Shown: piece after piece, positions 29,509-62,900 of the stretch
How positions within the stretch are numbered: the stretch's first letter is position 1
How the letters are laid out: every line of letters begins with the position of its first letter
Assembly: GCA_043821285.1 (NCBI GenBank)
Contig: JBDRCZ010000017.1
Coordinates: 15,947-79,946, forward strand
Direction of reading: 5' to 3'
DNA: 64,000 nt
From: Candidatus Omnitrophota bacterium
GTDB taxonomy: Bacteria; Omnitrophota; Gorgyraeia; B26-G9; JBDRCZ01
Position numbers and translations under genes: made by a program
The notes under the pieces: model-generated
Seen by the model: only the letters and a program-made list of their open reading frames with translations
Database searches by the model: none
What the model was told of the DNA's origin: nothing

Positions 29509-29534
29509 TCCCCCCTTTGTACATGGTTTATTAG

Positions 29535-29563
29535 ATTTTAACAGGATTAGAGGTGATTGTCAA
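29535..29563 (-). promoter_or_regulatory. Consensus sigma70 promoter for the 28969..29508 operon
   Basis: Minus-strand sense reads TTGACA-N17-TAAAAT (the -35 is perfect). A short leader follows, with the SD AGGGGGG. Confidence 0.55.
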
Positions 29564-29620
29564 GGATATATCGTGAAAAAGTAAGAAAAATCGTATTGTG
29601 TATTGAGTATTGTGGTTAAG

Positions 29621-29806: not shown

Positions 29807-29808
29807 AT

Positions 29809-29834
29809 AATTTTTTGTCATAAGACAAAAAATT
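29809..29834 (-). terminator. Terminator of giant gene A
   Basis: TTTTTTGTC-ATAA-GACAAAAAA hairpin immediately after the stop (minus sense ...GCAATATAA TTTTTTGTCTTATGACAAAAAAT). Confidence 0.55.
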
Positions 29835-32820: not shown

Positions 32821-32930
32821 ATTACATATATGCTTTCATTCTCGTATTGAGTATCGCGTATTAATGTTTTAAATTCGAAATCCGAATATCTAAATGTTTA
32901 GAATTTGCCATTCGTCATTATAAGTGTTTT

Positions 32931-32958: not shown

Positions 32959-33140
32959 ATTCGTTCTCGTATTGCGTTTTTTTATTGTCGTCTACTTGTT
33001 TTTATACTCAATACTCGATACACAATACACAATGCGTTGTTTAATCATTTCTCTCCGTGTTCTCTGCGGCTCTGTGTGATAAATTTTAGCTTTTATTTTC
33101 TGTCTTCTGAATTCTGATTTCTGTTTTCTGCTGTTAACTG

Positions 33141-39581: not shown

Positions 39582-40047
39582 AAGTTAATAGCCTATCAGT
39601 TAATTCCAAATGTTCCGCCTATCAAACCGGCGGACAGGCAAATAATAAAATCCAAATGACAAATGAATCATTTAATATCTCAATCTAAAAATCAAAATGA
39701 TATATTAAAATTCAAATATTTTTCTCTTTGACAGGATTTACAGGATTAACATGATTTTTTATCCAGTTAATCCTGTCTATTTTCTTATTTTCTCTGTGAA
39801 CTTTGTGTTCTCTGTGGTTATAAATTTTTTTATTTTTTTTAATCGTAATACTCAATACATGCTACTCAATACGCATTACTTTTTATAGTGTGCTCTCTGT
39901 GGTTAAAATATTTTTTGTTTTTTTATCTACATAATCATCCGTATTCTACGCTCTCTTTTATATGCACTATTTTCATTACAATCATACATATTGTAACCGC
40001 TAATAATTACAATCTGTTAAATATATTTATAACAATTTTAATATATA
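39582..40047 (-). promoter_or_regulatory. Long conserved 5' leader of giant gene B (about 465 nt)
   Basis: Shares several blocks with the 59037-59553 leader of gene E: conserved stem-loop TCCGCC-GGTTTGATA-GGCGGA near the start codon, CTCTGTG(A/G)TGATAAATTTTT boxes (CACAGAG in RNA sense), ACTCAATAC heptamers, AATCCTGTCTAT box. Confidence 0.5.
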
Positions 40048-40419: not shown

Positions 40420-40447
40420 CTAAAAAATTGCCATAGGCAATTTTTTA
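40420..40447 (-). terminator. Terminator of giant gene C overlapping its stop codon
   Basis: Minus sense GCAATTTAA-AAAATTGCC-TAT-GGCAATTTTTT: 10-bp A/T-flanked stem. The stop-codon region GGCAATTT can alternatively pair with AAATTGCC. Confidence 0.6.
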
Positions 40448-46400: not shown

Positions 46401-47536
46401 CAATACTGTACTGGTTTGCGATACACTGCTTTTGCTGCTACTAATATATTTTTTTCTTTCTCTGTAAGTGCGGTGTCATCATTTGTCCATATCCTAATCA
46501 TTCCGTGTCTTGGTGCTGTTATATAAAATGAAATTTTTGACGCAAGAAACTCTTCCCATTCTTCTGGAGAAGGCACAGTTGATAAATCAGCACGTAAACG
46601 TATAAAACGGTTATAGTTTTTATTTTCGTTATTAATTATGTCTGCCGGAAGCAGCCGCCGGCCAACATGAATTTCTATATTAGAGTTTTCTGGTATTGGT
46701 TGGGTATAACGGCTTCGATCAGGGGTTGAAACATTCCAGTAGTTTTGTGTTGATATACCAAATCTCAAAGATTCGTTATCTATTTTTATGCTCTCGGGAG
46801 CAAAAAACATCATCATAATTGCATGCGCAGGTAAACGTATTGCATCAATCCAGTAGTGAATTCCTTTACGATAACTATACTCAAGGATAATTTTAATACC
46901 ACGTTCAAACAGAACTTTTAATCCGGGTAAAAAGGCAATATTATTAAATACGCTGTTGGTATTTAATCTAAAGACTTCCATATCCCTGGGGACAGTAAGC
47001 ACTATTCGCGGAGACGCACCTTTAATATCTATTTTTCCATAAGTAGTAATTTCACTTTGCAAATCACGCGCCAACCCAAGCAAACTTAGAAAGTCAATTT
47101 CTTTTAGAACCGGGGGTATTCTTTCAACCGTCTCATCATCTGGACAAGGTATTTCTGGAATTTCCCTAATATTTAATTGATTGTTTTTTTTAGAAATTAC
47201 ATAAGAACGTTGTTTACCAGCTGCGCCTGTTGTTACAAACAATACTATCGAACCATCATTCGCAAATCTTTTCTCGCATGCATCAAACTCAAACTTATCT
47301 TTAATATAACTTACGCCAACATGTCCTTCTGCCCAAGTATATGCATCACTTATTTTTTTGTAAAGCATAATATTTTCTGCAAATAGAGGGTCATTTACTT
47401 CCAAAGGCGGGGCAAGATGGGTATGTAGACCTTTTAGATTGCCGCCGGCGGCCCATGAGATGTCTAAGCATAGAAAGGCATTGATTAATATTATGGAAAT
47501 TAGTCTAAAACAAATTGTACGTGTTAAATTATTCAT
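40445..47536 (-). CDS. Giant-family protein C (2363 aa): signal peptide, TM cluster, poly-acidic/poly-basic linker, helical-repeat C-terminal module paralogous to F, C-terminal FEIERAI
   Basis: N-terminus MNNLTRTICFRLISIILINAFLCLDISWAAGGNLKGLHTHLAPPL. DDSDQYDDDEEEDK ... RKKRKREREKE. C-terminal 700 aa align clearly with gene F, e.g. LIFAAVAYTVIAGYDVSKIIPIYIEKEQSYLIN versus LFAVIVYTFIAGGDVSKIILIYIEKEISYLIN. Confidence 0.7.
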   Translation of the reverse strand: MNNLTRTICFRLISIILINAFLCLDISWAAGGNLKGLHTHLAPPLEVNDPLFAENIMLYKKISDAYTWAEGHVGVSYIKDKFEFDACEKRFANDGSIVLFVTTGAAGKQRSYVISKKNNQLNIREIPEIPCPDDETVERIPPVLKEIDFLSLLGLARDLQSEITTYGKIDIKGASPRIVLTVPRDMEVFRLNTNSVFNNIAFLPGLKVLFERGIKIILEYSYRKGIHYWIDAIRLPAHAIMMMFFAPESIKIDNESLRFGISTQNYWNVSTPDRSRYTQPIPENSNIEIHVGRRLLPADIINNENKNYNRFIRLRADLSTVPSPEEWEEFLASKISFYITAPRHGMIRIWTNDDTALTEKEKNILVAAKAVYRKPVQYWDTNKSTQDWDSAENYIKMMKEKEANLNNFDETQRLAIIKALAEQFGVYSVSAVLQIIENLLNEHQNITPQSLGQLVEVIKWWGGEFVLILANYLTTLFNKNKHTEIERIVLRVDSLGLAFYGALLASIKDNELLAVIQNIHNKRILDIRQYNTKIQRLRERLEFFPTDGLKKIKTEGKGDGYKLRIAWWHQDRMIDNTKYAIAGNTILLRNEANSKELIIDILRKEVTFRENDIIWIGNVEYKIVKEDDKIFLSDKENKHDLRKDRNGNIIIDLRALIKTNRAVREFYQESNAGKSVTLNSHPLINGLFLLLIAPFILEVISNITGIPVSVNLGHLPIHAILGLSLIMTFPLYIQPQIQFIPNVWELVKKAVTGAKSAMLIIIDYIEFTIINSLARHEGLLYPVVHFVAARPDALAFFIWKGLAWGFSLLCLLGSTGVRSTRNSALEIDLSFLVKTYLLLDEDTYHEALKDAIDNIIESAHENGQIIEQLIGVINDLTLSEEEIEQLMQEGSGELSEENIRIALMLIIEELINAIDDSDQYDDDEEEDKVVLMKRKARKQYRADSPPIARKKRKREREKENNPQAYTVPLQSGDLRQPEKEGTDTAEVALPKDTVPPSGNNNPLTLNSLEKLAAAFDLSLSPPDRFVRTTAPSNAAQVVHFPEPPSQSDTRALRAAWRNANQRADTNRDAPPTREVAAPSDNQVTFAELLADFDPIKTLTLEELLRRLNHGDNSSQLIEAIKQRLAEYQGIASIEPLQDLLNDREYHEGTRALLRMRIRELVNECDNLKTAVELYLERSWGSSIRNILSEKILRLTGIQKHIAGTIYLFFSNAANTELNDILSQYMCLENEVVHVLGLLIGIQDRTVRKRIIEWLRINKPELDTTIASQIEKLEKELADYYQTPEEIQAFIASAPQEVKNIITEMYNTKDKDEFLEIIKQFAEQIDTNLLNEEAIEITMSALGNCLNSMSVTEIFYLYTAMNQQETKGAEVTRGMIKSIIIIKTVSIPRNVTSISALYYVINNETLCPNEDIKDLARRRMKHIIKNNQDIVALVDVYLSQEWDDEYWNNYLWYRIKALSTAKRLAEVNDRLLSEWSRNPRLPQKTKQAAAAQLSNSIASQGKISEIHLTVSSIEDGIERLTAISDRFKRQQAENNDKTQAQAIAQEMVSKWGGEALAALANLLSKKIHSEVEIYIIFGIIRQVFSLDIENLLRLLTDNSINKYTYGCKQIRGVIAEVLRKRLLGYNDLSNIPELYQMLNTYPNRNSRAPLVERITAIINESEDIEALVDLYKSQAEWAWGLGVVIQNRINALKPPQSCELMLVEDPMQKHSLYPQVLQGAAAMQVASEELPAWQAPVTTREPLLLDMPPAVKARREKLSEVTILLEGVITRTQALNRRQSNERTIQQTINKEQKQTRKNQKKISNLRNNLIVVQDKIQKLRNLLAADWETIEAYLKAEPDFVFEFFTNKIKAQIEGKEERTTEAGEVLGEILQRINIPKHDAETHNLIFAAVAYTVIAGYDVSKIIPIYIEKEQSYLINSGFNSHEILAAFIRLSFAIYRRDKKPLFNALCDVIKEYISRDFSNVNNVLELALKQDKETAMEIFYRMLTDIDDFLYQALTARTQDTNENIRFAIDGVFLADYLLRMEVYLRAVIQDENRLNEFHNLDSVGNLINEVMEKTVDGVSGEIIFSPEFTNAEKFLKHIFRQGTSFELMLLENITVRLNAFTSEDAFKKALELEFLGLFISQRNEDTDVFEKEREMIRSELTDLVTAVKGNNLMINANRRSLESMHRIIGRKYQELIQQQGLTPSNTTIDKLLSILVYFPRNVINEILNKTIMPQAAAGTFIFFDNIYTVRPDYRQTVLETVTKAVANAYTQEDNVQLMMLRPFFEQCLNAIHEKCRAEDRDIVKTIIQEIISDDESILEAKNIDPHISDSDMLLLHALYSLIVAPQERHTGYRVGINGSDTKLEKREIADLFEIERAI

Positions 47537-47853
47537 ATGTTAATACCCTGTTAGTTAATTCCAAATGTTCTAATTCAAGATTTAAAAATTCCAAGATTCC
47601 AGATTCTAAAATTATAAAATTCCCCGCTACAAGGTCGAAGATCCGCCATCGTATTAGTGAAGAACGCTGGCGAACAGGCAAATTCTCTAACCTTCGGCAA
47701 GTAAAACGTTTTGAATCGTTAAATCTTAAAATATTCAAATTTTGGAATTGTTTGTTTTATTCTTCTGTCTTCTATTCTCTACCTTCTGTTTTCTGCTTTC
47801 AATCAGCTGTATCAGTAAACGGTAAACTGCCTGCCTTCCATTAGGGAGGTAAA

Positions 47854-47881
47854 CTAAAAAATTGCCGCAGCAATTTTTTAG
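47854..47881 (-). terminator. Terminator of giant gene D overlapping its stop codon
   Basis: AAAAAATTGC-CGCA-GCAATTTTTT hairpin; minus sense ...GCAATCTAA AAAATTGCTGCGGCAATTTTTTAG. Confidence 0.6.
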
Positions 47882-50800
47882 ATTGCTTGTTCTACTGCCA
47901 ACATTTCATTCCACTCTAACTCTGTAAGTGCAGGGGGTTGTTTAGGCATTGTTGTCAATTGTCCTGGGTTATTATCATGAGGATCCAGTCTTTGCTGCTC
48001 TACAATCTTTATTGCTGCTTCAATAATCGCTGCAGTGTCCATCTTATGTGCACGGTATAATATCTCGTGACTTCTTGCGGATTGTCCCCAACCTTGGATT
48101 CCTAACGAAGTTACAGTTGAACCAGTTGTAAGCAGAGATGAAGTTACTACCTTACTTACTGCTCCGCTTAATATTTTTGGAGAAGCGTCTTGAACAGTAA
48201 TTATTGGCACTCCCCGTTCAAGAAGAGGTGGTAAAGCTTCATCGATTAAATCCAATCTGGTCAAATTTATTACTTTTGCGGTAATATCTTGACTTTCCAA
48301 TTGTTCGCTCGCGGCAATTGCAAATTCCACCATTGCTCCGGCAGCAATAATAATAATATCGCTATTTTGTCCGTTTTCTCTTGGATCTTTAATTACATAA
48401 GCACCTTGTTCTGGACTGGGATTTTCTCCTCTATTTAAAACTGGAACATTTTGACGGGTAAGCTGAAGATAAGAAGGTCCTTTACCATCTAATGCCCTGT
48501 GCATAGCAAAATCTACTGCTTCTTCAGCCTCACGGGCATCTGCAGGTATAAAACCAGTCATTTTTTGCAAAAAAGAAATATAGCGAATAACGCCAGCAAC
48601 GATTACTGACTGATGAGTAGAACCGTCTGGCCCAACGCCTAAGCCGGCATGACTTAACGCAACAATTACCGGTAGTTTTGCCCGGGCAATCACAATTATT
48701 TGACTAATCATTCGGTTAGCAAAACAATCAAAGGTTGCGATAACTGGTATCTTACCATATAATGCTAATCCAGCAGCAATTCCTGCCATTGCTTGTTCTC
48801 TTACTCCGGATGGAACGTATCTTCCATTGGTGTTATGACGAGAAAAAATGCCAAAGTCCCTAGCAAACCAATTCAGTCTTGTAGAACTGGCAATGTCCGC
48901 GCAGAAAGCAATAATCTTTTCGACGCGTTTTCCCCAGTCAAGCATCCTGTTACCAAAACCATCACGTGTAGCAAAATTCCTATTTGCTTGGTATCTAATT
49001 TCTGCCGGTGTTTGTAGCATTGTCATTTGAACCGGCTCTGGCTCTTGTGTTTGTTTAATGTTGCTATAAATAAGCAGATTGAATTCCCCAATCTTATAAG
49101 GAACCATTCCATTCAATGCTTCCATAATTGTTGTGGCCATGATGTGTTCATCAAAACCCCGGGTAATAATTAAAACAGGTTTTCCTGTATTATCCTTGTT
49201 TAGCTGTTCAAAGGTTTGACCTAAGATTTCAGCCTGTTCTTGATTATTATTAGCATTGAGCTCAATCACTCTCCAACCATAAGCTTGCCAAATATTAACT
49301 AATTCCGTGTTTGTCTCTGAAGCTTGAAGGACTAAGCAGAGATTATCTATGCCATTGTGTGCGGCGAATCTAGCTGTTTCTGCAAACTGACCTTCTCTTT
49401 CTTCTTTTTCCGTGGCTAAAGCAATAACTCTGCCAGATGCTGTATCCATTTTAGCTCCAAAAGCTATACCTGCGGCCAGAGAAAGACGCATACCCGCAGG
49501 GAATATTTCTTGAGGACTAAAATCTATTTTCATAAGCCCGTCCGTGGGTTTTTCTTTTCCATCAACTAATTCTTTTGCTACTTCTATTATATTTTCAATA
49601 TCCTTGTCACTCATGGACCAAACAACGGAACCTGCGGTTTTAGAAGATGAAGTTACAGTCCTGCTTACCGCATCACCTAAACATACTGGCAATCCATCAT
49701 AAATTGTAAGAATACGGCTTCCTGGCTCAATATACTCTAAGAGCTCACTTCCTGCACCTAATGAGTCTAATTGCGTAACATTTATGATCTTAGTCATCGT
49801 ACCTTGTGATTCTAACTCATTACTGACTTTTATGGTTTGATGAAGACTTTTACCTGAAGAAATAAGAATAACCCTCTTTTTTGCCGTGTCCCACCCTTCA
49901 GATTGACTTATAACATAGGCACCTTGCTCTGGCTGGGGATTTTCTCCTCTATCTATAACCGGAAGATCTGCAGAACTTAAACGAATATAAGAAGCAGTGT
50001 ACTCATCTGGGATATTAAGTGATGTAGGGGCTTTATTTGTTATTTTAGCCAATAATAATGCATTTTTTATTGCCATATCAGTCAACTCATTAGTTTCATT
50101 AGGATCCCCTGGTTCTAACGCAATTACATTATGCATCAGGTCCATAACTCCTGGGGTAAAACTTAACTCTTCAGATTCAGCCGCTAAAATAAACGGTACC
50201 CTTGCCTGAGCATTTATCCTTAATTGGTCTAACATTTTCATCGCATCATTTTCCGGCAGAAAGACAATCGGCAGCATACCCGAATAACCAAACCCAGCAG
50301 CAAAACTGGCTAAGTGCTGTTCTCTATCCTCAACTAAGAAACATCGCTCGATGAGTTTATTTCTTATATCTTCATCAGTAATCTGTGCAATAAATTCATC
50401 AATAAATCTTTGTTTAGAATCGGAATTATTAAAAATAAATACTATCCGTTCATCTTTTTCTGCCCACTGGAGTAGTCTATTTTTAAATGCAACAGATGGA
50501 GAGACTTCCTCATCCTGTGCATAGTTGGTTCTATCTGGTATTGTTGTCGTGTCTGTTTTTTGTAGAGTACTCTCTTTTGATAAATTGTTTTCTTCTTGTT
50601 CTGTCATTTGGTTATCTGAAATAAATCTATCTACATCTGTTGAAAATCCATAAAAATTCATTTGTTGACTAATATTTTCAATTGTGTTTTCTATTTGGGG
50701 GATAGCTTCAGATAGTTCTTTATCATTTAATGCTCTACCGTGAAACGCGGTTGGATCATCTTCCATAAAATCTACGCCTTTACCTTTTTTTGTCTTGGCA

Positions 50801-53553
50801 ATAATTGCTGTTGGCTTGTTTTTAATGTTTCTTGCTTCTTCACAAGCCGCGATAATTTCTAATGGTTCATGGCCATTAATTTCAATAACATGCCAGCCAC
50901 AACCTCTCCACGAACCTGCGACATCCGCACTATCTACTTCTTTAGTCAAGCTATCAATTTGTGCGCCATTAGCATTTACAAATAAGGTAAGATTATCTAA
51001 CCCTAATTCCGCAATATGCCTGGCAGCCTCTGCATATTGTCCTTCCTGTTCTTCCCCATCACCGGCAATAGCAAAGACGTTGGAGTCACGTCCATGCATT
51101 TTAGCTAGAAGCGCCATACCCGCGGCATTGGAGAGTCCCATACCTAAGGAACCGGTCAAGGCTTCTATACCACGAGTACAAATCCAGTCAGTATGTCCAG
51201 GAAGTCCACTGTTTAACTCTCTTAAATGGGATAATTGCTCTTTTGAAATATAGCCAAGTTTAGCTAAAATAGAATAAACTGCTGGCGCTATATGCCCTTC
51301 AGAAATAACTAACCGGTCACGGTCTGGCCAGCGCGGGTCATTTGGTGTATGATTCATAATCCGCGTTCCATCGGAATATCGTCCAAGATATAAAGTGACC
51401 AGTATCTCAGCCGCAGAGAGCGAACCTCCTGGATGTCCTGAACCAGCTATATTAATCATCTCCAGAATATCATTACGGCACATTTCTGCGATTTTCTTTA
51501 ACATCAAGCTTTGGCGCTGCTGTTCTATATAGTCTTTTCGCCAAAAAGCACCAATTATCAAAACACCAACAAGAAATATAGTATATGCGATCAATAAATG
51601 TATTGGAGATTGAAACAGTGTCATTATTGGTATTGAAATGGTTTCAAAACGATGGCTAAATGTTTTTAGTAGTTCGACAAAAGCTAATAAAATCGCACCA
51701 ATTGTGCCCAATAAGGCATAGGGGTTGAATTGTCGAAGGGTTAAATCTTGAGGAAATATATCTGAATTGTGGGGTGAAACATTAGAATCATCCCCTTTCC
51801 TTTTTAAATATTCTATTGCTCCATTAACCACCAAAAGAGCCCTAAAATATGCCTCTAAATAATCTTCTGCTGTTGTAAGAATAATTTTTTGATCATCTAA
51901 TCCAGAACGTGCTATCGGGTGACCTAAAATGTTTTCGTTTTCAGCCATTCTTTGTGAAGCAATCTTCCGCATATGTGTCCAGTTATGAAGTTGATTTACG
52001 CCTTTCAGCGGTAATAAGAGAGGGTTTCTTATACCCTGTGAGGTATAAAATTTTTCAACATCCTCGTCTTTGAGACCTGTCTGCTCTGGCACAAAATGAG
52101 GAGTATCACTAGGATATGCAGCCTCTGCCAAAAAAACATTTGCTGTTATTCTCCCCGAAGAATAATGTTCTGTTACACATTTTAGGTAAAAAACCAATGT
52201 TCCATTTAAAGCAGAGTCAATAAAGCATACTTGCGATGTATTATTATCAATAATTCCTTCATCAATTAACTGCTCATAAGTTTGTTTTGCTTGTTCAGCA
52301 AAAACCGTGTTTGTTTTTAATGTTTCTTCAAAGGATTGTCTTAATTGTGGATAGAAATTTTCCGGATCTCCTTGTTCTGTAGTATTGCGGCGAACTTTTC
52401 GCAATGTGTCTTCAATAATCTTAAAATTGTCGCGTTTTCTTTTTTCCGGAGTAGGATGATCATCTCCTATATAACCTAACATTTTTCGATCAAGATAAAA
52501 TACAAAAGAATTATCAGGGGGAGCCCCTTTTGTCAAAAGACTCAAATAATACTCGGACTCATAGTAAATTGCTCCATCACGTGCTAAATAAACTCTTCGT
52601 CCTTCAGCAGGTAATTGTTCTAATAAATAAGGGATGATTTTAGCTGTGCCTATTAACCACATAAAAGAATCTTTTTTTTGTCTTGAAGTCAAAAAATGGC
52701 AAAGGCTTCTTAGCTTTATATTCAAACTTCCAGTAAATAAGCCTTGATTTCTTACACCTTGTTCTGTCATTACCAATAACTCTTGCTCTCTTCTTCGTAA
52801 TTCTTCTGCTATTTCTACGTTACTTCTCCATCTCAATTGGTCTGGTTTAAGAACTTGATAATGCGTGCGTACCTCATGCCCTTCGATCGGGCTTAAAAAA
52901 TGTATCGGAAATGTTGGACTTATTTCTGGTACATTAATAGAGGTTAACATCATTTCTAAATCCATGGCTATACCTTCTTCGCCGAGTGGATGTCTTAATA
53001 CTGATAATGCGCGCTCTTTAACTTTATCATTGGGGTCTTCCAATATTATTTTTTTCAAAAATTCAACAACCTTTGTTTTAGCTGTCTCACTTTTGTTCCC
53101 AACAATTCCCAAGAGCCGTATTAAATTACTGCGTGGATTGTCTAACACAACACCACCACGATAAAGAAGATCATCAGGGTCAATAATGGTTGGATCATCC
53201 CAAGCAGCGATTAAGGCATTTATCAGTATAATAGCATCGAGACTTAATAATTTTGGAGCTTCATTTCGTCTCCAAATATTAAACTGCGAAAAAGTTAATC
53301 TTAAAACTTGCGTTAGTTCTTCCCTTTTTATCTCTATAGGGTACTTATTTACTGATTGTGTAGATATACCAAGTGTATTTTGTTCAAAAGGCTCTGTAAG
53401 TGAAGACTTACTTATCTCTAAAGGAGGCGAGAGGTGGGTGGACAAATTTTTCAAATTACTATTTGCCGCCCATGAAATGTCAAGACATAAAAAAGAGTTG
53501 ATTAATATAAAGGCTGTTAGTTTGAATAAAATGTCCCGTTTTATTTTTTTCAT
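47878..53553 (-). CDS. Giant-family protein D (1891 aa): signal peptide, HEAT-like N-region, TM cluster, two tandem transketolase-like modules, C-terminal AVEQAI
   Basis: Module 1: SGHPGGSLSAAEILVTLYLGRY ... IAGDGEEQEGQYAEAARHIAELGLDNLTLFVNANGAQIDS (TPP/PP domain) plus a Tkt-C-like segment RGENPQPEQGAYVISQSEG. Module 2: degenerate PP domain (ATEKEEREGQFAE...), then a Transket_pyr-like FATRDGFGNRML...GVREQAMAGIAAGLALYGKIPVIATFDCFANRMISQIIV...GPDGSTHQSV and a Tkt-C-like RGENPSPEQGAYVIKD. Confidence 0.75.
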   Translation of the reverse strand: MKKIKRDILFKLTAFILINSFLCLDISWAANSNLKNLSTHLSPPLEISKSSLTEPFEQNTLGISTQSVNKYPIEIKREELTQVLRLTFSQFNIWRRNEAPKLLSLDAIILINALIAAWDDPTIIDPDDLLYRGGVVLDNPRSNLIRLLGIVGNKSETAKTKVVEFLKKIILEDPNDKVKERALSVLRHPLGEEGIAMDLEMMLTSINVPEISPTFPIHFLSPIEGHEVRTHYQVLKPDQLRWRSNVEIAEELRRREQELLVMTEQGVRNQGLFTGSLNIKLRSLCHFLTSRQKKDSFMWLIGTAKIIPYLLEQLPAEGRRVYLARDGAIYYESEYYLSLLTKGAPPDNSFVFYLDRKMLGYIGDDHPTPEKRKRDNFKIIEDTLRKVRRNTTEQGDPENFYPQLRQSFEETLKTNTVFAEQAKQTYEQLIDEGIIDNNTSQVCFIDSALNGTLVFYLKCVTEHYSSGRITANVFLAEAAYPSDTPHFVPEQTGLKDEDVEKFYTSQGIRNPLLLPLKGVNQLHNWTHMRKIASQRMAENENILGHPIARSGLDDQKIILTTAEDYLEAYFRALLVVNGAIEYLKRKGDDSNVSPHNSDIFPQDLTLRQFNPYALLGTIGAILLAFVELLKTFSHRFETISIPIMTLFQSPIHLLIAYTIFLVGVLIIGAFWRKDYIEQQRQSLMLKKIAEMCRNDILEMINIAGSGHPGGSLSAAEILVTLYLGRYSDGTRIMNHTPNDPRWPDRDRLVISEGHIAPAVYSILAKLGYISKEQLSHLRELNSGLPGHTDWICTRGIEALTGSLGMGLSNAAGMALLAKMHGRDSNVFAIAGDGEEQEGQYAEAARHIAELGLDNLTLFVNANGAQIDSLTKEVDSADVAGSWRGCGWHVIEINGHEPLEIIAACEEARNIKNKPTAIIAKTKKGKGVDFMEDDPTAFHGRALNDKELSEAIPQIENTIENISQQMNFYGFSTDVDRFISDNQMTEQEENNLSKESTLQKTDTTTIPDRTNYAQDEEVSPSVAFKNRLLQWAEKDERIVFIFNNSDSKQRFIDEFIAQITDEDIRNKLIERCFLVEDREQHLASFAAGFGYSGMLPIVFLPENDAMKMLDQLRINAQARVPFILAAESEELSFTPGVMDLMHNVIALEPGDPNETNELTDMAIKNALLLAKITNKAPTSLNIPDEYTASYIRLSSADLPVIDRGENPQPEQGAYVISQSEGWDTAKKRVILISSGKSLHQTIKVSNELESQGTMTKIINVTQLDSLGAGSELLEYIEPGSRILTIYDGLPVCLGDAVSRTVTSSSKTAGSVVWSMSDKDIENIIEVAKELVDGKEKPTDGLMKIDFSPQEIFPAGMRLSLAAGIAFGAKMDTASGRVIALATEKEEREGQFAETARFAAHNGIDNLCLVLQASETNTELVNIWQAYGWRVIELNANNNQEQAEILGQTFEQLNKDNTGKPVLIITRGFDEHIMATTIMEALNGMVPYKIGEFNLLIYSNIKQTQEPEPVQMTMLQTPAEIRYQANRNFATRDGFGNRMLDWGKRVEKIIAFCADIASSTRLNWFARDFGIFSRHNTNGRYVPSGVREQAMAGIAAGLALYGKIPVIATFDCFANRMISQIIVIARAKLPVIVALSHAGLGVGPDGSTHQSVIVAGVIRYISFLQKMTGFIPADAREAEEAVDFAMHRALDGKGPSYLQLTRQNVPVLNRGENPSPEQGAYVIKDPRENGQNSDIIIIAAGAMVEFAIAASEQLESQDITAKVINLTRLDLIDEALPPLLERGVPIITVQDASPKILSGAVSKVVTSSLLTTGSTVTSLGIQGWGQSARSHEILYRAHKMDTAAIIEAAIKIVEQQRLDPHDNNPGQLTTMPKQPPALTELEWNEMLAVEQAI

Positions 53554-53756
53554 GATTTGTAGATATGTTTATCCATTCCAGATTTTAAAATTCCCCGCCA
53601 TAATGCGTTGACAGGCAGATTCAAAATTTAAATATTTTCTTTGAAACAAGTGTCACATGATTAATCTGATTTTTTATCCTTCTTTATCCTATTAATCCTG
53701 TCTATTTTTTCTGCTTTTTTGTCTTCCAAATTCTGACTTCTGTTTTCTATCACAGT

Positions 53757-55227
53757 ACTTTGTTAAAAATCAGGTCTTTTCAAAAAAATCATTTACGTAA
53801 GTCGTGAAAACTCATAACTTATGTAATTTCAATACTTTACGTTAATTTTTTCCTTGACAATATCCACAACTCCTGCTATGGTATATAGTTGTAATCAAAC
53901 CACCGTAACACACAACAGGAGGTGGATATGGGTATTTTTAATCTCACTATTTCGGTAATCAATAATTTCTTATTTCGTTTTAAACCTGCCTTCTCAAAAA
54001 AACAATTTATCGTTTTCTCCTTCCTGATCTATGCTTTGTTTAAAGACTACAAGAGAAATTCCCTTTATGCCCTCGCCTCTAAAACTCCAATCAACTATCA
54101 GGCTTGTCAGTACTTCTTATCTGAAGGAAAATGGAGTATCGATGATCTTAATAATATAAGGTTAAAAATTATTGAACATCAAAGAACTACTTCTGCTACT
54201 TCCTCCGGCGTCTTAGTTATTGATGATACTTCTCCTAAGCCTTTTGCTAAAGCTACCGCCGGTGCTAAACGTCAACACTGTGGTGTCTTAAATCGTGAAG
54301 AAATCTGTAATGTTGCTGTATTCTCTGCCTTCGCCTCCAAAACTAAACGCTTCCCGATAAACCTTAAATCTTATCTCCCCGCTGAAAAATTCTTATTTGG
54401 CAAAGAGGATGTAGATTTTAAAAGTAAGCTCGATCTTGCCCAAATATTAGTCGATGATGCCTTAGAAAGAAAAATTAAATTCTCTTCCCTCGTCATAGAT
54501 GCATGGTATGCTCAGTCTTCACAATTCCTTGAGTTTGTTCACTGCCAGAGAAAACTGCCCTTCATTGGTGAATTAAAGTCCAATCGTAACATCTTCTTTT
54601 ACCATCCGCTAAAGCGGAAACACTGCTGGATCCAGCAGGATGAGCTGGTGAAACTCATCAAAAAACATTATCCGCATAAGTGTAGGTTTTTTACCTCCAC
54701 GAGCAAAGATGGTAAGAAGAAGTCTTGGGTCTTCTACACCTTCAAGGGACTGCTGAAAGATTGTTCTGTTCCCTTAAGCATAGTGGTGATCTTTGGTAAG
54801 TGGGATAATCAGGATGATAAGAATGTTCATATCCTTATCTCCAATCAGACCCGCCTGGCTACTAAGACCATCATTTCCACCTACCTGCTTCGTTGGGGAA
54901 TAGAGCTTATCTTCAGGGAGCTCAAGGATGTCTTCTCCTTTGACCAATACCAGGTTAGACATACCAAACAGATCGAACGTTACTAGACACTATGCCTTAT
55001 TGCATGGAGCCTGTTATATTGGGTCAAACAAAATGCCTATCTTACCAAAATCCTTGAGCATAAACCTGCTACCTTCTATGACTACAAACAGGCCATTGAC
55101 TCCTTACTCCTTTATGATGCTCATCAGTCTCTTTCAAAGAACAGTCATCTTGCTCAGAAATATTTTAAAATTAAATCGGATAATTTTAAACAGCAAATCG
55201 CTCGCGTTGCCTGATTTTTAACAAAGT
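53757..55227 (+). mobile_element. IS element (IS4/IS701-like DDE family), 1471 bp, perfect 18-bp terminal inverted repeats ACTTTGTTAAAAATCAGG
   Basis: Left repeat at 53757-53774 and its exact reverse complement at 55210-55227 (extendable to about 24-29 bp with 2 mismatches). Single transposase ORF inside. Inserted within the leader of giant gene D, between D and the terminator of E. Target-site duplication not clearly resolvable (CTAT/TAT). Confidence 0.7.
53922..55212 (+). pseudogene. DDE transposase of the IS, interrupted by an in-frame TAG at 54984-54986
   Basis: Track ORF 53922..54986 ends ...YQVRHTKQIERY*. The same frame continues TLCLIAWSLLYWVKQN...QQIARVA to a TGA inside the right terminal repeat (about 55212). 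The Y-x2-R-x3-E ... K tail typical of IS4-type transposases straddles the TAG. TAG is a genuine stop elsewhere in this window. Confidence 0.5.
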
Positions 55228-55285
55228 CCTGTTCTATCATTTAAAACATATAGTAGACAGCAAACTGTACACTGTAAACGGTAAA

Positions 55286-55313
55286 CTAAAAATTGCCGAT
55301 GGCAATTTTTTTA
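55286..55313 (-). terminator. Terminator of giant gene E overlapping its stop codon
   Basis: AAAAATTGCC-GAT-GGCAATTTTTTT; minus sense ...GCAATCTAA AAAAATTGCCATCGGCAATTTTTAG. Confidence 0.6.
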
Positions 55314-58300
55314 GATTGCCTGTTCCACGGCCAAAACCGTATTCAATCCTACTCCTTCAAGTAGCGGAAGTAAAGACATCAATTTCTGCATAGGCTTTTC
55401 ACCCTGCTGTCTGCAACCATCTGGAGTGTCTTTTCTTTCTCCATCTTCCATGAAACTCTGAGAAGCTAAATATCTCATTAGTTCTCCTGTTTGATTAGGA
55501 TTGGTTACTCTTACTATCGTAATATTTTCAACTTTAAGAACTAATCGATCATTACCTCCACTCCAAAATTCATCACCAATATATATGTCAGCTGCTGCAT
55601 CTATTACAGCCGCGGCTTTATCTTCTAAGTTTTCAGTATGTTCTTCTACAAAATCTCCCATTTTTTCATCATAGATGAATTTATGATACCCCGGTTCAGA
55701 GGATATGGTATAAAGAACAAGATTTTTTAATAAACCCTGCTTATCTTTCGGGATAGCAAATAATACCTGGCCTTTTACATTAAATATGTTTCCGCCAGTA
55801 ATTATTCTTAGCTTATATCCAACCTCAAGTAAGTTAAGGAATGCATCCAGATTATCTTCTCCGATTATTCCCCAGTAAGGAACAAGTGTGCCATCCATAT
55901 CTATTCCTATAACCTGAATTTCTTCTAACGGTACATGGCCATTTATAATATCATGGACATTTAATGGAGTATTTTGGGTTGTATCTACTGGGGATAGCGT
56001 GCCAAGTGTTTGTTTTGGGACAAAACTGTTTTCTTGCTCACGCTTTGCTATAAATTTACGGTGTGCAAGGACAATAAAGGTAGAAAGTGCAAGACCTTTA
56101 CCCTGCAATTCTTCTACTGTTTCACGGTTATCTTTAAGCTGCGGATCTAAATATGCCGCCAATAATTGCATAAGCAAAGGTTCATTAAGTAATAAATCTA
56201 CTCCCACGTTAACTTCTTGATAAAGTTTTTTTGCCTTTACATAGTCTGAAAAAAGTTCTCCTAATAACGAGGATTCATTGGTTAATTCCGCATACAAATT
56301 ATCGAATATTTCTTCTACAGATATTAATATATCATTGTACATTTCATCAGAAAGATGGCTTCTTAAAAATTCTTCTTGTTCTTGTACTTTCCACGGAGGT
56401 AGATATTTACTTCTCAAACCGTATTGATTTAAACATTGCTCTAACTTATAAAAGATTATTTGTTCAAGAACACTCTCATTATCAACTTTACTGATCAAAT
56501 TTTCTGGCAAGCGGTTTTTAATAAGATTTTTAAGCAGTGTACCAGTCGCCGATGTACTCAATCCGGTTCCATCAGCAAGTGAGTTTGGTGTCCATTCAAA
56601 AGGCAGCCATTCTGACACAACTATTCCGTGAAGATACTCTCTTCCAAAAGATATTCTTCCTCTTGTTCCTAAACCAAAAGTGTGAAGTTGAATGCCAAAT
56701 TGTTCGTTAAGCTTAGCATTTGTAACAGTGGAAGAGTCAGAATTTTTAAGAAGAGCAGCGAAATGTGCTTCAACCTCTGCTAATGAATCAAGCAAACACC
56801 TTGCTTTATGAAGAGTTACACCAGTTTCAACAATATCATCAATTATAAGAACGTTGCGGTGTTCTCTGAGATACTCGACGACCTTTGTATCATTTAGAAA
56901 TAACCGCAGGTCTTCAGGAGAATCTAAAGAGTATACATCTCTTTCAAAACCCAAACGCACCCTTTCAGCTTCTGTCAATAATGACCAAATTATTGTTGTT
57001 AAATTTAACTTTTGAGTAATAATCCAACTTTGGAATTCAGGTATTTCCTTATTAAATAAGTTATTCGCTTTTAACTGAGTAAGCAAAATTTCCAATGCTT
57101 TGGCAATTGGATCAGCTCCTTTTGAGGGAAAGATAACTAAATTTATATCGTGTTGGATTAAATATTTAACAATAGGAAGAAGTATAGGAGCAAATTGCAA
57201 AACTTGTATGTCTGTTCCTAAAGAATCTATGTCTCCAATTTCTTCACCTAATGCAGCTTCGACCGCCTGCCGAAGCTTTCCAGTATATCTGGAGCGATAA
57301 GGACTACGCAGATATCCTTCAATCGTTGGCAAGTTTTTTGCGATCTCCTTTTCAAGCTCTTCTTCAGCCCTCAAAAACATCTGATGCCCTGTTTCTGTCC
57401 TGAATAAAGTTTCACCCAGAAAATTGCCGTCATCTTTGCCTGATTTTTCATAAAGTCTATACTCTTCTTCAAGGCGCTCTTTATTAGTTTTAAATCTGGC
57501 TCGGATCTGTTCAGGTGTTATTTCTATTCCCGCAGCTTCTAAATCAGCAATAATCCCTTGATAAGTACACATAAATAATCTGTCTGCCTCACGCCATACT
57601 GTTATTAATCTATAAAAAGAAGAAGCATTAGCAAAAGGCCCTTCAAAATTAAACAAAAACTGTCCTTTTTCATATAAAGAAGTATCAACACCCATATTTC
57701 TAAGCTCTACTAAGGCCTGTTCAATAGAAGGATTATCATGAGCTTTTACCACACCACAGATTAAATTTACATTTACATCAGTTGCACTTAAAATACCGGT
57801 TGAAATTAATTGTTGGATTAATTCCCTAATCATTTCGGGGGCTTTTTTCATATGCGCAAGCCTAAACGCGATTGTGTTCTGCGCTAATTCTTTTGCCTTT
57901 AACGAATTTCTCTGTTCAATTTTCTTGCGTATTTGAATAATTCTTGCCCGTGAGCCTTCTAACTTGGCGTACCCAATATCATGTAATAAGGCTAATATTG
58001 CTGCGTTTTTAAATTCTTCATAGGTAAAATCTTCTCCTAATCCAATCTGCACCGCGTTCTCTAAGACTTGAGTATGATGATTTACAGGGTTGCCATTTGC
58101 TCCAGCTTTAAAATGAGGTAAGGCGCTCCAAAAAAGTGTGAAGAGAATATTTTGAATTTCTTGTTTTTGCTGGTCTGTAAATGTGCGGTCTTTTTCAATG
58201 CGGCTTAGTGCATTTTCCAAATTCTGAACTGCTAAACTTTTCTTACACTGAACAAGATAGTAGCCATTCTTTTCTTCAATTACTGCTTCTAATCCATTGT

Positions 58301-59036
58301 CTGTAAGAAATTGTTCAAATTCTGCTTTATTAGAAAAACTAAATCGACCACGTCCAGCGTTTATTGGTTCGGCAATCAATATTTCACCTTCTGAACTAAC
58401 TGCCCGAATATACTCCTTTAATAACTGATCACGTTCTTCACGATTACTAAACATGGTAAAGAACCGAATGCTGACCACTTTAGAAAAACTTCCGTCTTTA
58501 AACCGCATGTCCAAGGCACTGGCTTTTACCAAATCAACATTTTTGCTATCTTGCTTTCTATTTTGAGCAATGTTAAGTAAAATTTCATTGGTATCTAACC
58601 CTGTTATATGTTTGCAAAATTGAGAAATATAAAAAGTGAAATGTCCGGAACCACAACCTATTTCTAAAACTTCATCATCATTATCAATATTAGCTTCAAG
58701 CCAGTCTTTAGGGAAGTCTACAAGATAAGATGCAAGCGTACGATCATAAAAATAGGAAAAATATATCTTTTTGAGCCAATCAACGAGTCTTTCAGTCCAA
58801 GACCTGTGAGGAGAAATATCTCGTGTATCGTTAGGCAGCTTTAGCTGAGTTATATTTATTGTTTCTGCAACGTGTTCTTTAAGAATAGAATTATTTATTT
58901 GCAAAGGCGGAGCAAGGTGGGTGGACAAATTTTTTAAATTACCATTAGCAGCCCAGGAAATATCTAAGCATAAAAAGGCGTTAATTAATATAATCGCTGT
59001 TAGTTTGAATAATATATTTTTTTTAATGTTCAACAT
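55311..59036 (-). CDS. Giant-family protein E (1241 aa): signal peptide, class I SAM methyltransferase, HD domain, type I phosphoribosyltransferase-like and HAD-like phosphatase domains, C-terminal AVEQAI
   Basis: MTase motif I VLEIGCGSGHFT; HD: H..H ... LLHDIGYAK; PRTase: VLIIDDIVETGVTLHKA; HAD motif I VIGIDMDGTLVPYWG. N-terminus MLNIKKNILFKLTAIILINAFLCLDISWAANGNLKNLSTHLAPPL. SD GGAGA 8 nt upstream. Confidence 0.75.
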   Translation of the reverse strand: MLNIKKNILFKLTAIILINAFLCLDISWAANGNLKNLSTHLAPPLQINNSILKEHVAETINITQLKLPNDTRDISPHRSWTERLVDWLKKIYFSYFYDRTLASYLVDFPKDWLEANIDNDDEVLEIGCGSGHFTFYISQFCKHITGLDTNEILLNIAQNRKQDSKNVDLVKASALDMRFKDGSFSKVVSIRFFTMFSNREERDQLLKEYIRAVSSEGEILIAEPINAGRGRFSFSNKAEFEQFLTDNGLEAVIEEKNGYYLVQCKKSLAVQNLENALSRIEKDRTFTDQQKQEIQNILFTLFWSALPHFKAGANGNPVNHHTQVLENAVQIGLGEDFTYEEFKNAAILALLHDIGYAKLEGSRARIIQIRKKIEQRNSLKAKELAQNTIAFRLAHMKKAPEMIRELIQQLISTGILSATDVNVNLICGVVKAHDNPSIEQALVELRNMGVDTSLYEKGQFLFNFEGPFANASSFYRLITVWREADRLFMCTYQGIIADLEAAGIEITPEQIRARFKTNKERLEEEYRLYEKSGKDDGNFLGETLFRTETGHQMFLRAEEELEKEIAKNLPTIEGYLRSPYRSRYTGKLRQAVEAALGEEIGDIDSLGTDIQVLQFAPILLPIVKYLIQHDINLVIFPSKGADPIAKALEILLTQLKANNLFNKEIPEFQSWIITQKLNLTTIIWSLLTEAERVRLGFERDVYSLDSPEDLRLFLNDTKVVEYLREHRNVLIIDDIVETGVTLHKARCLLDSLAEVEAHFAALLKNSDSSTVTNAKLNEQFGIQLHTFGLGTRGRISFGREYLHGIVVSEWLPFEWTPNSLADGTGLSTSATGTLLKNLIKNRLPENLISKVDNESVLEQIIFYKLEQCLNQYGLRSKYLPPWKVQEQEEFLRSHLSDEMYNDILISVEEIFDNLYAELTNESSLLGELFSDYVKAKKLYQEVNVGVDLLLNEPLLMQLLAAYLDPQLKDNRETVEELQGKGLALSTFIVLAHRKFIAKREQENSFVPKQTLGTLSPVDTTQNTPLNVHDIINGHVPLEEIQVIGIDMDGTLVPYWGIIGEDNLDAFLNLLEVGYKLRIITGGNIFNVKGQVLFAIPKDKQGLLKNLVLYTISSEPGYHKFIYDEKMGDFVEEHTENLEDKAAAVIDAAADIYIGDEFWSGGNDRLVLKVENITIVRVTNPNQTGELMRYLASQSFMEDGERKDTPDGCRQQGEKPMQKLMSLLPLLEGVGLNTVLAVEQAI

Positions 59037-59553
59037 AATAAATATCTCCAGTTATTTAATTTTAAATGTCCCGCCTATCAAACCGGCGACAGGCAAATGA
59101 ATCATTAAATAATTCAATCTTTAAAATTTATTTATGTAATTTGTGTGATTTGTTGTTAATAAAATAAGTACTTGAAATCTTTCTTTGTGTGCTCCGTGTC
59201 TCTGTGTGACAAATCTAATATTTTTGTTTCGCTTGTCCGCCGTGCTCTGTTTGGCGGGTCATTCTGGTTTCGTTATTCGTTATTAAATTATCCTGTCTAT
59301 CATCCACAATGATTGGCGGATCTTCAATTTTTTATATTTTCTCTGTGAACTTTGCGAGCTCTGTGGTGATAAATTTTTTATTTTTTTTTACCGCGATACT
59401 CAATACTCATTGCTTTTTATAGTGTGCGCTCTGTGATGATAATTTTTGTTTTGTTTTTTTAGCCACAATGCTCAATACACAATACCCGATACTTAATCAT
59501 ATTACTTTTCATAATGCCTTGTTATAAATAAATTTATAACATCTTTTAAATAG
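59037..59553 (-). promoter_or_regulatory. Long conserved 5' leader of giant gene E (about 515 nt)
   Basis: RNA sense contains at least 6 CACAGAG motifs, TATTGAG/TATTGTG heptamers, an AATCCTGTCTAT box, and the stem-loop GTCGCC-GGTTTGATA-GGCGGGAC 50 nt before the ATG. Collinear blocks shared with the gene B leader. Confidence 0.5.
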
Positions 59554-59560
59554 TTTTATA

Positions 59561-59589
59561 AGTATACCATATAATTACGCAATTTTCAA
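59561..59589 (-). promoter_or_regulatory. Near-consensus sigma70 promoter of giant gene E
   Basis: Minus sense TTGAAA-N17-TGgTATACT, read from + strand AGTATACCATATAATTACGCAATTTTCAA. Confidence 0.55.
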
Positions 59590-59933
59590 GGGTTTGGGGA
59601 AATTTTTTTTGATTTTGTGATTTCTATGCTTATTGTTTTAACTATTTGGTATTAAAAAAGATATGGCATAGAAAATTAACAACAGCATTATTTAGGCAAG
59701 AATTGATTATATTTTTATTAAAGAAATAAATTGTAAGAGAAAATAATTATTACGATTAGATTTTATTGATTCTAAAATTTTAAATAAATTTTAACTTTAT
59801 TTTTCACCACAGAAAACACTGAGCCCACAAAGAAAAACTTGATACAAATCATACAAATATTTACATGCATAGCCTTCTTCCGTATAATCTGATTCTGCCT
59901 GCCTCCGGTAGGACGGTAAACAGTAAACGGTTA

Positions 59934-59961
59934 ACAAAAAGTTGCCATAGGCAACTTTTTA
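59934..59961 (-). terminator. Terminator of giant gene F overlapping its stop codon (covarying stem)
   Basis: AAAAAGTTGCC-ATAG-GCAACTTTTT. Relative to the C, D and E terminators, the A:T pair is replaced by G:C on both arms, a compensatory change. Confidence 0.6.
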
Positions 59962-62900
59962 AATTGCCTGTTCTATAGCATACACCATATCTAATTCAAA
60001 CAAGTTAATCTCTGGCGCATCATCCGGTTGAGATACAATCATTAGAGCAGTGCTTGGTTTTATAGGAGGATTATTTTGATCTAACTCATCTGGGTCATTG
60101 CGGAAAGACCCATATTCATCTTCGCTCCAGGGATAACAATATATTGAAGTTCCCCCATCCTTTTTTTTCTCAAGAAGACCGTATTCTGATAATCGATTAA
60201 GAACTGTCCTTACCCTGTCTGTGCCCATATATCTATAATTGCGGAATTCATCTCTCAATACCTCAGCAACCTCTGATGCTTTAAACTCCCTACCGTTAGC
60301 AAAATTCGCCCAGACTGTACGAAGTATAACTTTTTCATTACCGGGCTGATTGTTCTCCTGTAGTGTAATATTGTCCCAGTAAGATAAATATGATTGGTCA
60401 AATTCCTCTTTTGACAAATCCCGCAATTCCCGTTTATGTTCTTGGTCAATTGCTGCCATCTCACGATATACAATGCATTTGTTTAAGTGTGCGAGTGACA
60501 GCAATAACGGCACATTTTTTATCTGCCCCTTGTTTATTCTTTGCGTTTCTGATATTCTTAAAATCTGTTTATAATATTCTATTGTTTTGTCATAACACGA
60601 TAGTGCTTTTATATATTCTTCTTTATCATTTTGCTCAAAACCATTTTCCGCATATTCAGCGCCTTCTTCAGCATACCATGCAGCTGCTTCTGTAAAAATA
60701 TCTACTGCACCAGCAAAATATTTTTCCTTAATATATTTACTAGCTAACGCTTTATAAACATTAGCGGACATTGGCATACTGCTATCTGGATAAAATTGTT
60801 TTCCTGTTGACTGGTTACTAGTTCTCGTGTGTGATGGTATTATCATTCTTGCAGGTGTGCTACTTTGGGGAGAAACTCCATTATATGTTGTATCAAAACC
60901 CCTAGTATATGCGAATTGCCATTTTTGTGGTATGATATTTCGTAATACCTCCGCGATAAAGGCAGGTGGGGTTAAAATCCAATTTGCTACCTTGATTAAG
61001 GCTTCAGAATATCTTTTACCTTCTAATTTATCCTCCATCCATTTTAGTACTGTAGCGCGCTGCCAGAAGCCAAGATATTCTCCAAAGAAATAGAAAAATA
61101 CTACTGCTGCCCATCCTCCCACACCCGCCAGGTCAAAAGGTATAATTAAACGGCCCGCACCTCTATTTCTGAGTCTATCTTGTATAACAAAATGCGGCAG
61201 TGGGACATTAAACCTTAATATCTGCCTTTCTCTACTTAATATTAAATCAGCATTGCCTAAATTTGCTTTACCGATAACTTCATCTATAATACTCCTCACA
61301 ATCACTTTTTCTCGATTATTACACCCGCGGTAAATCGCTCTAAAATATTCTCTTAGTAGAGAACGGATCATTATAAGCTGAACATTGTCTTGTCTTATGT
61401 ATACTTCAGCAGCTGAACGTACTGCTATTTCAAGTGCTTCTTGTTTGTGCGCTGGCAATATTCTGTATGTCTGATTAGCCACTGTGCCCCTATCTTGTGT
61501 GACATAAGGGGCTATCACTTTAAAAAGTACATGCCGTGCATCTGCTTGAGAAAGATATACTAATCCTTTTAATGTGTCATCCATGACCGCTTTAGTTAAC
61601 GGGTGTTGTCCTGGATTTTGAATAGAACTGTAAATTCTAGCGATAATTTCTATATTAATTCTCTCTATAGGTGTAGAATCTATTTTAAATTCATAGCTTC
61701 CTACATCGTCTTTTCTAACGGTCTGCACAATTTCATTTACTTTTTGAATAATCTCTTGTCTTTCATCTTTTAAAAGGCCTATATCTTCTCTTGATAAAAA
61801 GCTTGCTAAAAACTCCAGTTCTAATGCTTGCTGAAGAGCATTTTCTGGAGAAAAATTATTAATCCCTTGTTTAAGAGCATCCATCATGGAAACTTCTAAG
61901 TTTATACCAGGGCGATAAGTGTGTAAAAAAAACCTTTTGATATTGATAAATTCTGGCAAAAGAATAACCTCTTTAGTGTCTAAATTTATAGTCTCATTTA
62001 TAGTTTCTTCTAATATAGAGCTAAACGGGCGAAGAAGTACTAATCTTTCATAAAGAGTCTCATCTGAATGAAAAAATGTTAAATAGATCACAAGTCTTAA
62101 ATAATAATCCGCCAGAAAAACACCATCTACAGTAAACTCTATGTTACCATCTTTATCTCTACGGCTTACAGTTAAACATTTGTACAAAAAATTATCTATC
62201 TCTGTAAGCATCCGATATAAGATTTCCATCGCGGTTTCTGTATTCTGTTCTAAGGCAAGCTCAAGAACATTAGTGACATTTGAGAAATCTTGCAAAACAA
62301 CATATTCTTTAAGAACACCCCATAGACTATCAAACAACTCATGGTCTTCACGATGATAAGCAAATGCAGCCAGGCCAACAAATGACGCTAAGTTTGCTTT
62401 TAAATTTAAACCGGTATTTATCAAATAGCTTATTTCCTTTTCTATATAAATGAGTATAATTTTAGAAACATCACCTCCGGCAATAAAGGTATAAACAATC
62501 ACTGCAAAAAGGGCGTCGTGTAATTCCTCATCTTCCGGAGATATATTTAATCGTTGAAGTATTTCAGCCAACACTGCTATTACCATATCAATTTCTTCGA
62601 TATTATCTTGTATATGCACGCGCATTTTATTAATAAAAAATACCAAAACATGGCGAAGTTCATTTTTTAGATGACTGTCCAATTTTTCCCAGTCTCCTTC
62701 TTCCGTTTCTGTTAAACTTTGTATTTCAGCTTGGACACGGTCTAATTCTTCATTCAACGAGTTTATTCTTTCTGTATTTGAAGGGGCCGGACTTCTCTGT
62801 CTCTGTCTTTGTCTCTGCCGCCTTGAGCTTCTTGGTTCTGACCTACGCTGTAAGTTTTGTATTTCCCGGGTAATCTCTTGCTCTCGCCCTTTCAGCGCCG

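Follow-up and report, generated by a model that had tools for sequence, protein, structure and literature searches.

Gene E, one of six giant paralogous genes in an Omnitrophota MAG, is on balance probably preceded by an ordinary sigma-70 promoter and a long 5' UTR built of dispersed intergenic micro-repeats, which were inherited and reshuffled among the paralogs. As read from the letters, this leader is a repeat mosaic of the REP/BIME and STRR kind, copied between paralogs. Three kinds of repeat appear to make it up, namely GTATTGA heptamer arrays, CAC[A/G/T]GA[G/T] boxes and a GC-rich REP-like hairpin, and these populate many spacers, in either orientation, both in the window (the whole 64-kb stretch of DNA analysed here, a bacterial chromosome segment with about 36% GC) and in contigs of Candidatus Scalindua. 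The reading of the leader as a riboswitch, which an earlier note on this DNA had put forward, is not supported.

The giant-gene array and the predicted promoter of gene E

The six giant genes lie in tandem on the minus strand, between 29833 and 63891:

29833-32820, minus strand: gene A
33141-39581, minus strand: gene B
40445-47536, minus strand: gene C
47878-53553, minus strand: gene D
55311-59036, minus strand: gene E
59959 onward, minus strand: gene F, running off the end of the window

The N-terminal 50 or so residues of genes A to E are alike and signal-like (LINAFLCLDISWAA..NLK.L.THLAPPL), and EQAI or ERAI forms the C-terminus of all six. Their middles are unrelated, with a SAM methyltransferase domain in E and a transketolase in D, and gene F has a C-terminal winged-helix domain of the Penicillinase_R type. 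An exhaustive search with a profile of the N-terminus returned 72 proteins among 1.84 billion representatives; the best matches, among them proteins fused to PGK, to a site-2 protease and to an AAA domain, all belong to this same Omnitrophota MAG. An N-terminal peptide profile gave no confirmed loci in genome contigs, a word-index protein search found no match to the giant-gene family, and no link between the hairpin and the giant-gene N-terminus was seen in the hairpin-bearing metagenome loci. The DnaE of the window is 100% identical to a protein from a MAG classified as Candidatus Omnitrophota, and the next relatives by DnaE have an identity of 62% at most.

The spacer upstream of E (59037-59958) is the site of the predicted promoter and leader. 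It contains the following features, in the direction of E transcription:

59936..59960, minus strand: terminator-like hairpin of F, AAAAAGTTGCC-TAT-GGCAACTTTTT, overlapping the F stop codon, with the same element after genes B, C and E
59895..59935, minus strand: GTTTAC repeats and a CCTACC-GGAGG-CAGGCAG block, common to the spacers after C, D and E; on the plus strand, a CCTGCC-hairpin variant
59796..59832, minus strand: inverted CACAGAG-type box CTTTGTGGGCTCAGTGTTTTCTGTGGTGAAAAATAAA, upstream of the promoter
59561..59589, minus strand: sigma-70-type extended -10 promoter, TTGAAA-N17-TATACT preceded by TG, with a copy in paralog B
59521..59540, minus strand: AT-rich palindrome GTTATAAATTTATTTATAAC, at about +13 to +34, conserved in B (40034-40018), 5 matches against 0.55 expected
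59454..59492, minus strand: heptamer array 1, GTATCGG-GTATTGT-GTATTGA-GCATTGT, ending GTGGCTAAAAAAA
59419..59440, minus strand: CACAGAG box 1 (ATCATCACAGAGCGCACACTAT), collinear with B 39931-39780
59391..59413, minus strand: heptamer array 2, GCAATGA-GTATTGA-GTATCGC
59336..59373, minus strand: CACAGAG box 2 (TTTATCACCACAGAGCTCGCAAAGTTCACAGAGAAAAT), with two exact CACAGAG 18 nt apart, 87% to B
59290..59299, minus strand: TAGACAGGAT box, also in the A, B and D spacers, with ATCCTGTCTA in metagenome locus L114
59223..59263, plus strand: second GC hairpin GCTTGTCCGCC-N11-GGCGGG, a marginal reversed relative of the hairpin family (10.2 bits, E = 0.75)
59128..59214, minus strand: CACAGAG box 3 and tail, 81% over 64 nt to B 40286-40224 and 90% over 30 nt to metagenome locus L104
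59066..59102, minus strand: start-proximal hairpin CCTGT-CGCC-GGTTTGATA-GGCG-GGAC (22.9 bits, E = 1e-4, with covariance model R1)
59034..59049, minus strand: GGAG Shine-Dalgarno sequence (59049-59046) and ATG of gene E (59036-59034)

The earlier note had placed a near-consensus extended -10 promoter about 515 nt upstream of E, giving a long leader, and both predictions are supported. The -35 hexamer TTGAAA (59589-59584) and the -10 hexamer TATACT (59566-59561) are separated by 17 nt and together match at 10 of 12 positions, and the additional TG (TGgTATACT, 59569-59561, minus strand) gives the sequence of a sigma-70 extended -10 promoter. The -10 ends 525 nt from the ATG at 59036, hence a predicted transcription start near 59554 and a predicted leader of about 517 nt. 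The promoter has a counterpart in paralog B at 40083-40055, with a 16-nt spacer and a predicted leader of about 467 nt. Taken alone, a promoter match proves little, because AT-rich DNA yields many of them; in this region 8 promoter-like sites were found against 7.2 in shuffles. What lifts the E promoter above chance is its recurrence in paralog B and the block TATGGTATAC, which E, B and the promoter-like site of the IS transposase (53853-53882) share letter for letter. The AT-rich sequence around this block aligns poorly between E and B, and the E site fits the CTTGA[CA] and TATGGTATA promoter pattern of the genome. The spacers of A, C and D, of 276-341 nt (D counted after removal of the IS element), are without an E/B-type promoter and carry different period-7 arrays, of the CAGAAnn type.

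It was also considered that the predicted promoter is not the main one and that E is read through from F or starts near its ATG, the spacer being a 3' UTR with repeat clutter. The tandem, same-strand layout fits operons, promoter-like matches are no commoner in the region than in shuffles, and the short spacers of three paralogs do without such a promoter. However, the two long spacers agree in the promoter block but not in the adjacent AT-rich sequence, a terminator-like hairpin follows F, and the E site matches the other promoter-like sites of the genome, which leaves read-through or a proximal start as a very improbable account. The extended -10 promoter at 59589-59561 most likely starts the gene E transcript. 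The conserved promoters suggest that the array is split into the units E-D-C and B-A; we infer the start site, these units and any effect on expression.

The AT-rich palindrome has a form common to E and B, TGTTATAAATnTATTTA(T)AACA, 13-34 nt past the predicted starts, and could be a candidate operator or a 5'-terminal RNA hairpin. On the plus strand, a near-consensus promoter-like site (59860-59888, TTTACA-17-TATAAT, 11/12) is aimed at the bidirectional terminator of F and could give a transcript of about 70 nt from near CTGCCTGCCTCC; the spacer of B has no conserved counterpart.

At the end of four of the giant genes (F, E, D and C), a bidirectional terminator-like hairpin of the form AAAAA(A/G)TTGCC-N3-4-GGCAA(C/T)TTTTT overlaps the stop codon:

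59936-59960: terminator-like hairpin of F
55288-55312: terminator-like hairpin of E
47855-47879: terminator-like hairpin of D
40422-40446: terminator-like hairpin of C

The pattern scanner did not call the F hairpin, because the flanking A/T runs can extend its stem. On the 3' side of these terminators there are GTTTACC repeats and then a CCTCCC-TAAC-GGGAGG-CAGGCAG block, the homologous copy of which at 47825-47850 gives a weak match to R1. The start-proximal hairpin is preceded by YUGCCUGUC, of which the GGCAGGCAG part of the post-terminator block is the complement. An IS element (53752-55232) is inserted upstream of D, between D and the E terminator; its termini are 23-nt inverted repeats, 53752-53774 and 55210-55232, with 96% complementarity, and it carries a DDE_5 transposase (53922-54986, plus strand).

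Leader motifs and their recurrence in other spacers

The leader has four exact CACAGAG (59435, 59365, 59347 and 59206), fewer than the six or more that had been counted in the earlier note; with one mismatch, there are eight overlapping matches, all of them sense, against 0.64 in shuffles. The boxed pair, given there as 20 nt apart, is 18 nt apart from start to start. Window-wide, nine exact CACAGAG were found (2.8 expected), eight of them in the spacers of A, B and E. The TATTGAG-type heptamers are present as described, as GTATTGAG units at 59492-59454 and 59413-59391, and so is the TAGACAGGAT box at 59299-59290, although the plus strand of E reads TTATCCTGTCTAT and not AATCCTGTCTAT.

These motifs are not peculiar to the E leader. 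Allowing up to 2 mismatches, GTATTGAGTATTG has 21 matches in the 64-kb window against 2.6 expected, all intergenic and on both strands, with the guaA-dnaE spacer and 29593-29612 among them. Besides the two in the E leader, GTATTGA-type heptamer arrays are present in at least five other spacers, and both orientations are represented:

7333-7362, plus strand: GTATTGA-type array in the guaA-dnaE spacer, GTATTGC x4
7481-7514, minus strand: GTATTGA-type array in the guaA-dnaE spacer, CAATACT x5
29593-29614: GTATTGA-type array
32844-32856: GTATTGA-type array
33002-33035: GTATTGA-type array
39846-39879: GTATTGA-type array

The motif vocabulary of the E leader recurs, in both orientations, in the unrelated guaA-dnaE spacer and in the spacers at 29509-29832, 16264-17124, 5080-5289 and 3719-4221. 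Elsewhere in the window, the CAC[A/G/T]GA[G/T] boxes are the arms of inverted-repeat elements ending in GTGGCTAAAA, which are located in the spacers 983-1593, 3719-4221, 5080-5289 and 16264-17124. TRF detected nine period-7 arrays of at least three copies in the window, all in spacers between long ORFs, against 0-1 in each of two 23-kb Omnitrophota control loci taken from DnaE relatives. In the guaA-dnaE spacer (7323-7528), the inverted heptamer arrays could pair over about 120 nt; the CAATACT array ends 14 nt before the ATG of dnaE, a gene without a Shine-Dalgarno sequence.

An inverted copy of the CACAGAG-type box also stands upstream of the E promoter: 59840-59799 matches the reverse complement of 59214-59175 at 81% over 42 nt, and 59836-59799 matches that of 59374-59337 at 74% over 38 nt. 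The spacers of E and B share blocks that are 72-91% identical, but the module order differs; the module at 59191-59128 is inside the E leader, whereas its B counterpart (40286-40224) is upstream of the B promoter. E and B therefore share blocks and not a fixed architecture because they are paralogs whose modules have since been shuffled between them.

Several of these elements recur in the metagenome contigs that bear the hairpin, including CAC-box arms terminated by GTGGCTAAA (loci L114 and L127), CTCTGTG arrays (L104 and L178), ATCCTGTCTA (L114), CACGAATTT and GATTGAG units. Short-period arrays are found near the hairpins at 8.5 against 1.4 per 10 kb, a difference that was discarded as a distinct association of arrays with hairpins, being inseparable from their general intergenic location.

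The earlier proposal of a dedicated cis-regulatory RNA, whether riboswitch-like, a protein-titrating scaffold of CACAGAG/UAUUGAG motifs or a small-RNA precursor, draws on the strong over-representation of the motifs and their sense-only occurrence within the leader, on the blocks conserved between the E and B leaders, and on a 7-nt periodicity that recalls the repeat-binding proteins TRAP and HutP. Against it, the same motifs also stand upstream of the promoter and, facing either way, in spacers unrelated to that of E; module order is not the same in B and E; and the paralogs A, C and D have different arrays in their spacers, of the CAGAAnn type. The Rfam check gave no relevant family either: at the gathering threshold, the only match in the whole window was a tRNA (973-1044), and with E up to 5, the only match in 58990-59990 was a spurious one to mir-202 on the opposite strand. 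The predicted leader folds weakly, no more than slightly better than shuffles (z = -2.3). The leader comparison set comprises two long and three short paralogous spacers, and the start-proximal hairpin differs in C and D. As for a small ORF conserved in the leader, ATGATTCATTTG opens a short ORF (MIHL...) in E and B, without a preceding Shine-Dalgarno sequence, and the frames diverge after six codons. Since the motifs are not leader-specific, they do not indicate a dedicated riboswitch, and a regulatory RNA of any of these kinds is judged highly unlikely. If a protein does bind the repeats, it would do so throughout the genome and not in a way peculiar to the E leader.

Binding could instead take place on DNA, with the boxes as operator arrays in which the inverted CACAGAG/CTCTGTG boxes and the palindrome bind a factor that loops or blocks the promoter. 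Inverted boxes do flank the E promoter (59832-59796 on one side, 59373-59336 and 59210-59179 on the other), B and E both preserve the palindrome TGTTATAAATnTATTTA, the orientation-independent occurrence of the boxes elsewhere fits DNA recognition, and the neighboring gene F ends in a winged helix of the Penicillinase_R type. However, the sub-repeats vary among elements (CACAGAT, CACGGAT, CACTGAT and CACAGAG), the 7-nt period does not match the helical repeat of DNA, and in B the inverted and direct arms stand side by side upstream of the promoter instead of flanking it; an operator array is thus considered unlikely. The preferred reading, a 5' UTR made of dispersed repeats, also has points against it, as all eight CACAGAG-like matches in the leader are sense and the block identity of 77-91% between B and E would also fit a functional leader.

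A dispersed hairpin family

The stem-loop that had been noted next to the start codon is present (59093-59068), but it is not a private part of this leader; the same hairpin is scattered over many spacers of Scalindua, facing either way. The family is about 27 nt long, CCTGY-CCGCC-AGTTTGTTA-GGCGG-G, with a 9-nt loop. The E hairpin is a slightly degenerate copy that has lost one stem pair, and its last annotated base is 31 nt before the ATG, the GGCGG stem ending at 33 nt.

Metagenome contigs were searched with the exact pattern CCGCCRGTTTGWTAGGCGG, which gave at least 120 matching stretches; copies gathered in this way have an inner stem fixed by the pattern and carry no information on its covariation. 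Among the matches listed, 14 are in contigs of at least 47% GC, mostly within ORFs, and look like chance matches. At least 97 distinct copies are in contigs of 32-46% GC (metagenome loci L085-L204), and 92 of the 97 listed low-GC copies are intergenic, with five inside ORFs of at least 110 aa by the refined call (a cruder first ORF pass had placed seven inside long ORFs and 90 outside). In the 92 copies with full 30-nt flanks, a 5' CCTGY (about 92%) and a 3' G-R-A are conserved, both outside the search pattern. Where source contigs were placed by protein identity or cluster names, all six checked are Candidatus Scalindua. An outer helix, AATTCC...GGAATT, around the hairpin was dropped, as its pairing across the copies is only 50%.

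The covariance model R1, built only from 84 metagenome copies, has three significant matches within the 64 kb. These are the B copy (39647-39609, 40.1 bits, E = 6.5e-10), a reversed copy at 16691-16666 (29.9 bits, E = 8e-7), which is antisense to the flanking plus-strand genes, and the E hairpin; over 337 kb of control loci, including the two 23-kb Omnitrophota loci, R1 found nothing significant. The hairpin variants of the paralogs C and D differ in the loop or have a 5' arm that has decayed. At 16660-16745, two adjoining GC hairpins, CCGCCTAACAAACTGGCGG (the family hairpin, antisense) and CCCCGCCAAAAGACATGGCGGG, are just upstream of a GGAGGGGG Shine-Dalgarno sequence and ATG, and similar tandems are found in loci L152, L153 and L142.

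The listed metagenome copies comprise 17 sense and 11 antisense in tandem spacers, nine in convergent and 11 in divergent ones. The occurrence in all spacer types and both orientations therefore points to REP-like dispersed behavior and not to a leader-specific RNA. Sense copies nevertheless tend to cluster before genes, with 9 of 40 located 23-35 nt before a start codon (34 nt in B and 33 nt in E), although several of the nine are orthologs or have doubtful starts and about four to six are independent. The clustered copies include unrelated Scalindua genes with AU-rich spacers and no Shine-Dalgarno sequence. This clustering is a hint of a role in translation or mRNA stability beyond that of a passive passenger, and the invariance of the loop across many contigs suggests a sequence-specific partner.

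Taken further, the hairpin would be a functional element that a partner recognizes by its sequence, and it would act as a signal in translation or mRNA stability from a preferred position about 30-35 nt before starts that often have no Shine-Dalgarno sequence; the leaders of the giant genes would have recruited it, and the heptamer arrays would belong to the same recognition grammar. We regard this extended version as rather unlikely. In the preferred reading, the effect of the repeats on E is probably generic and REP/BIME-like, with RNA or DNA hairpins altering mRNA stability, processing or ribosome access, and the hairpin 33 nt before the E ATG may be the best candidate for an effect on expression. 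No description of the family was found in Rfam or in the searchable literature, whether under the sequence of the hairpin or in work on genomic repeats of Omnitrophota or anammox bacteria, and it appears to be undescribed.

Relation to known repeat systems and meaning

Similarly to the REP/BIME elements of enterobacteria, which are short, GC-rich, imperfect intergenic palindromes present in many copies and in either orientation, the hairpin is a multi-copy intergenic palindrome found in both orientations and in all spacer types. REP/BIME elements also form mosaics together with other short modules and share transcripts with the adjacent genes, as would be the case here. REPs carry a GTAG-type 5' tetranucleotide, whereas this hairpin has the invariant loop AGTTTGTTA and a 5' CCTGY, and the same hairpin is present in Scalindua (Planctomycetota) and in this Omnitrophota MAG; an invariant loop and a distribution across phyla are atypical for REPs. 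The window encodes a 268-aa ORF (27148-27954, minus strand) with a Y1_Tnp domain, IS200-like and possibly RAYT-like, and an HYHLL motif. Neither hairpins nor CAC boxes flank it, no hairpin copy has a RAYT gene beside it, and no homolog was found in 120 hairpin-bearing loci, which is a weak test because RAYT genes are single-copy.

The heptamer arrays resemble the STRR sequences of heterocystous cyanobacteria in having tandem 7-nt intergenic units, several unit families and both orientations. They differ in the host phylum and in the units, here GTATTGA, CAGAAnn and TTCGTGn, with no sequence identity to those of STRR1-3 (CCCCAGT, TTGGTCA and CAACAGT), and in being short, at 3-5 units, with hairpins and CAC boxes set between them. 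The BOX/RUP elements of Streptococcus pneumoniae are likewise modular intergenic repeats, often in 5' UTRs and able to alter downstream expression, but there is no sequence similarity, and the modules here are of 7-40 nt, compared with 45-59 bp for BOX modules. Riboswitches and the TRAP/HutP leaders have in common with the E leader a long 5' region with short motifs repeated at regular spacing; unlike them, the E leader has no Rfam match and no architecture conserved among paralogs, and its motifs occur beyond leaders and beyond the sense strand.

For annotation, the E leader is a warning that motif regularity alone is inadequate for calling riboswitches in genomes rich in micro-repeats. The hairpin, the CAC...GTG boxes and the heptamer arrays form a compact intergenic repeat vocabulary common to this Omnitrophota MAG and the marine anammox Scalindua. 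Such sharing across phyla is unexpected, as REP-like elements are usually genus-specific, and it may reflect horizontal spread among co-occurring PVC bacteria, a conserved host factor that recognizes the hairpin, or a common role in the control of long 5' UTRs. The part of the E leader worth pursuing is the hairpin, in the sense orientation, about 30-35 nt before starts.
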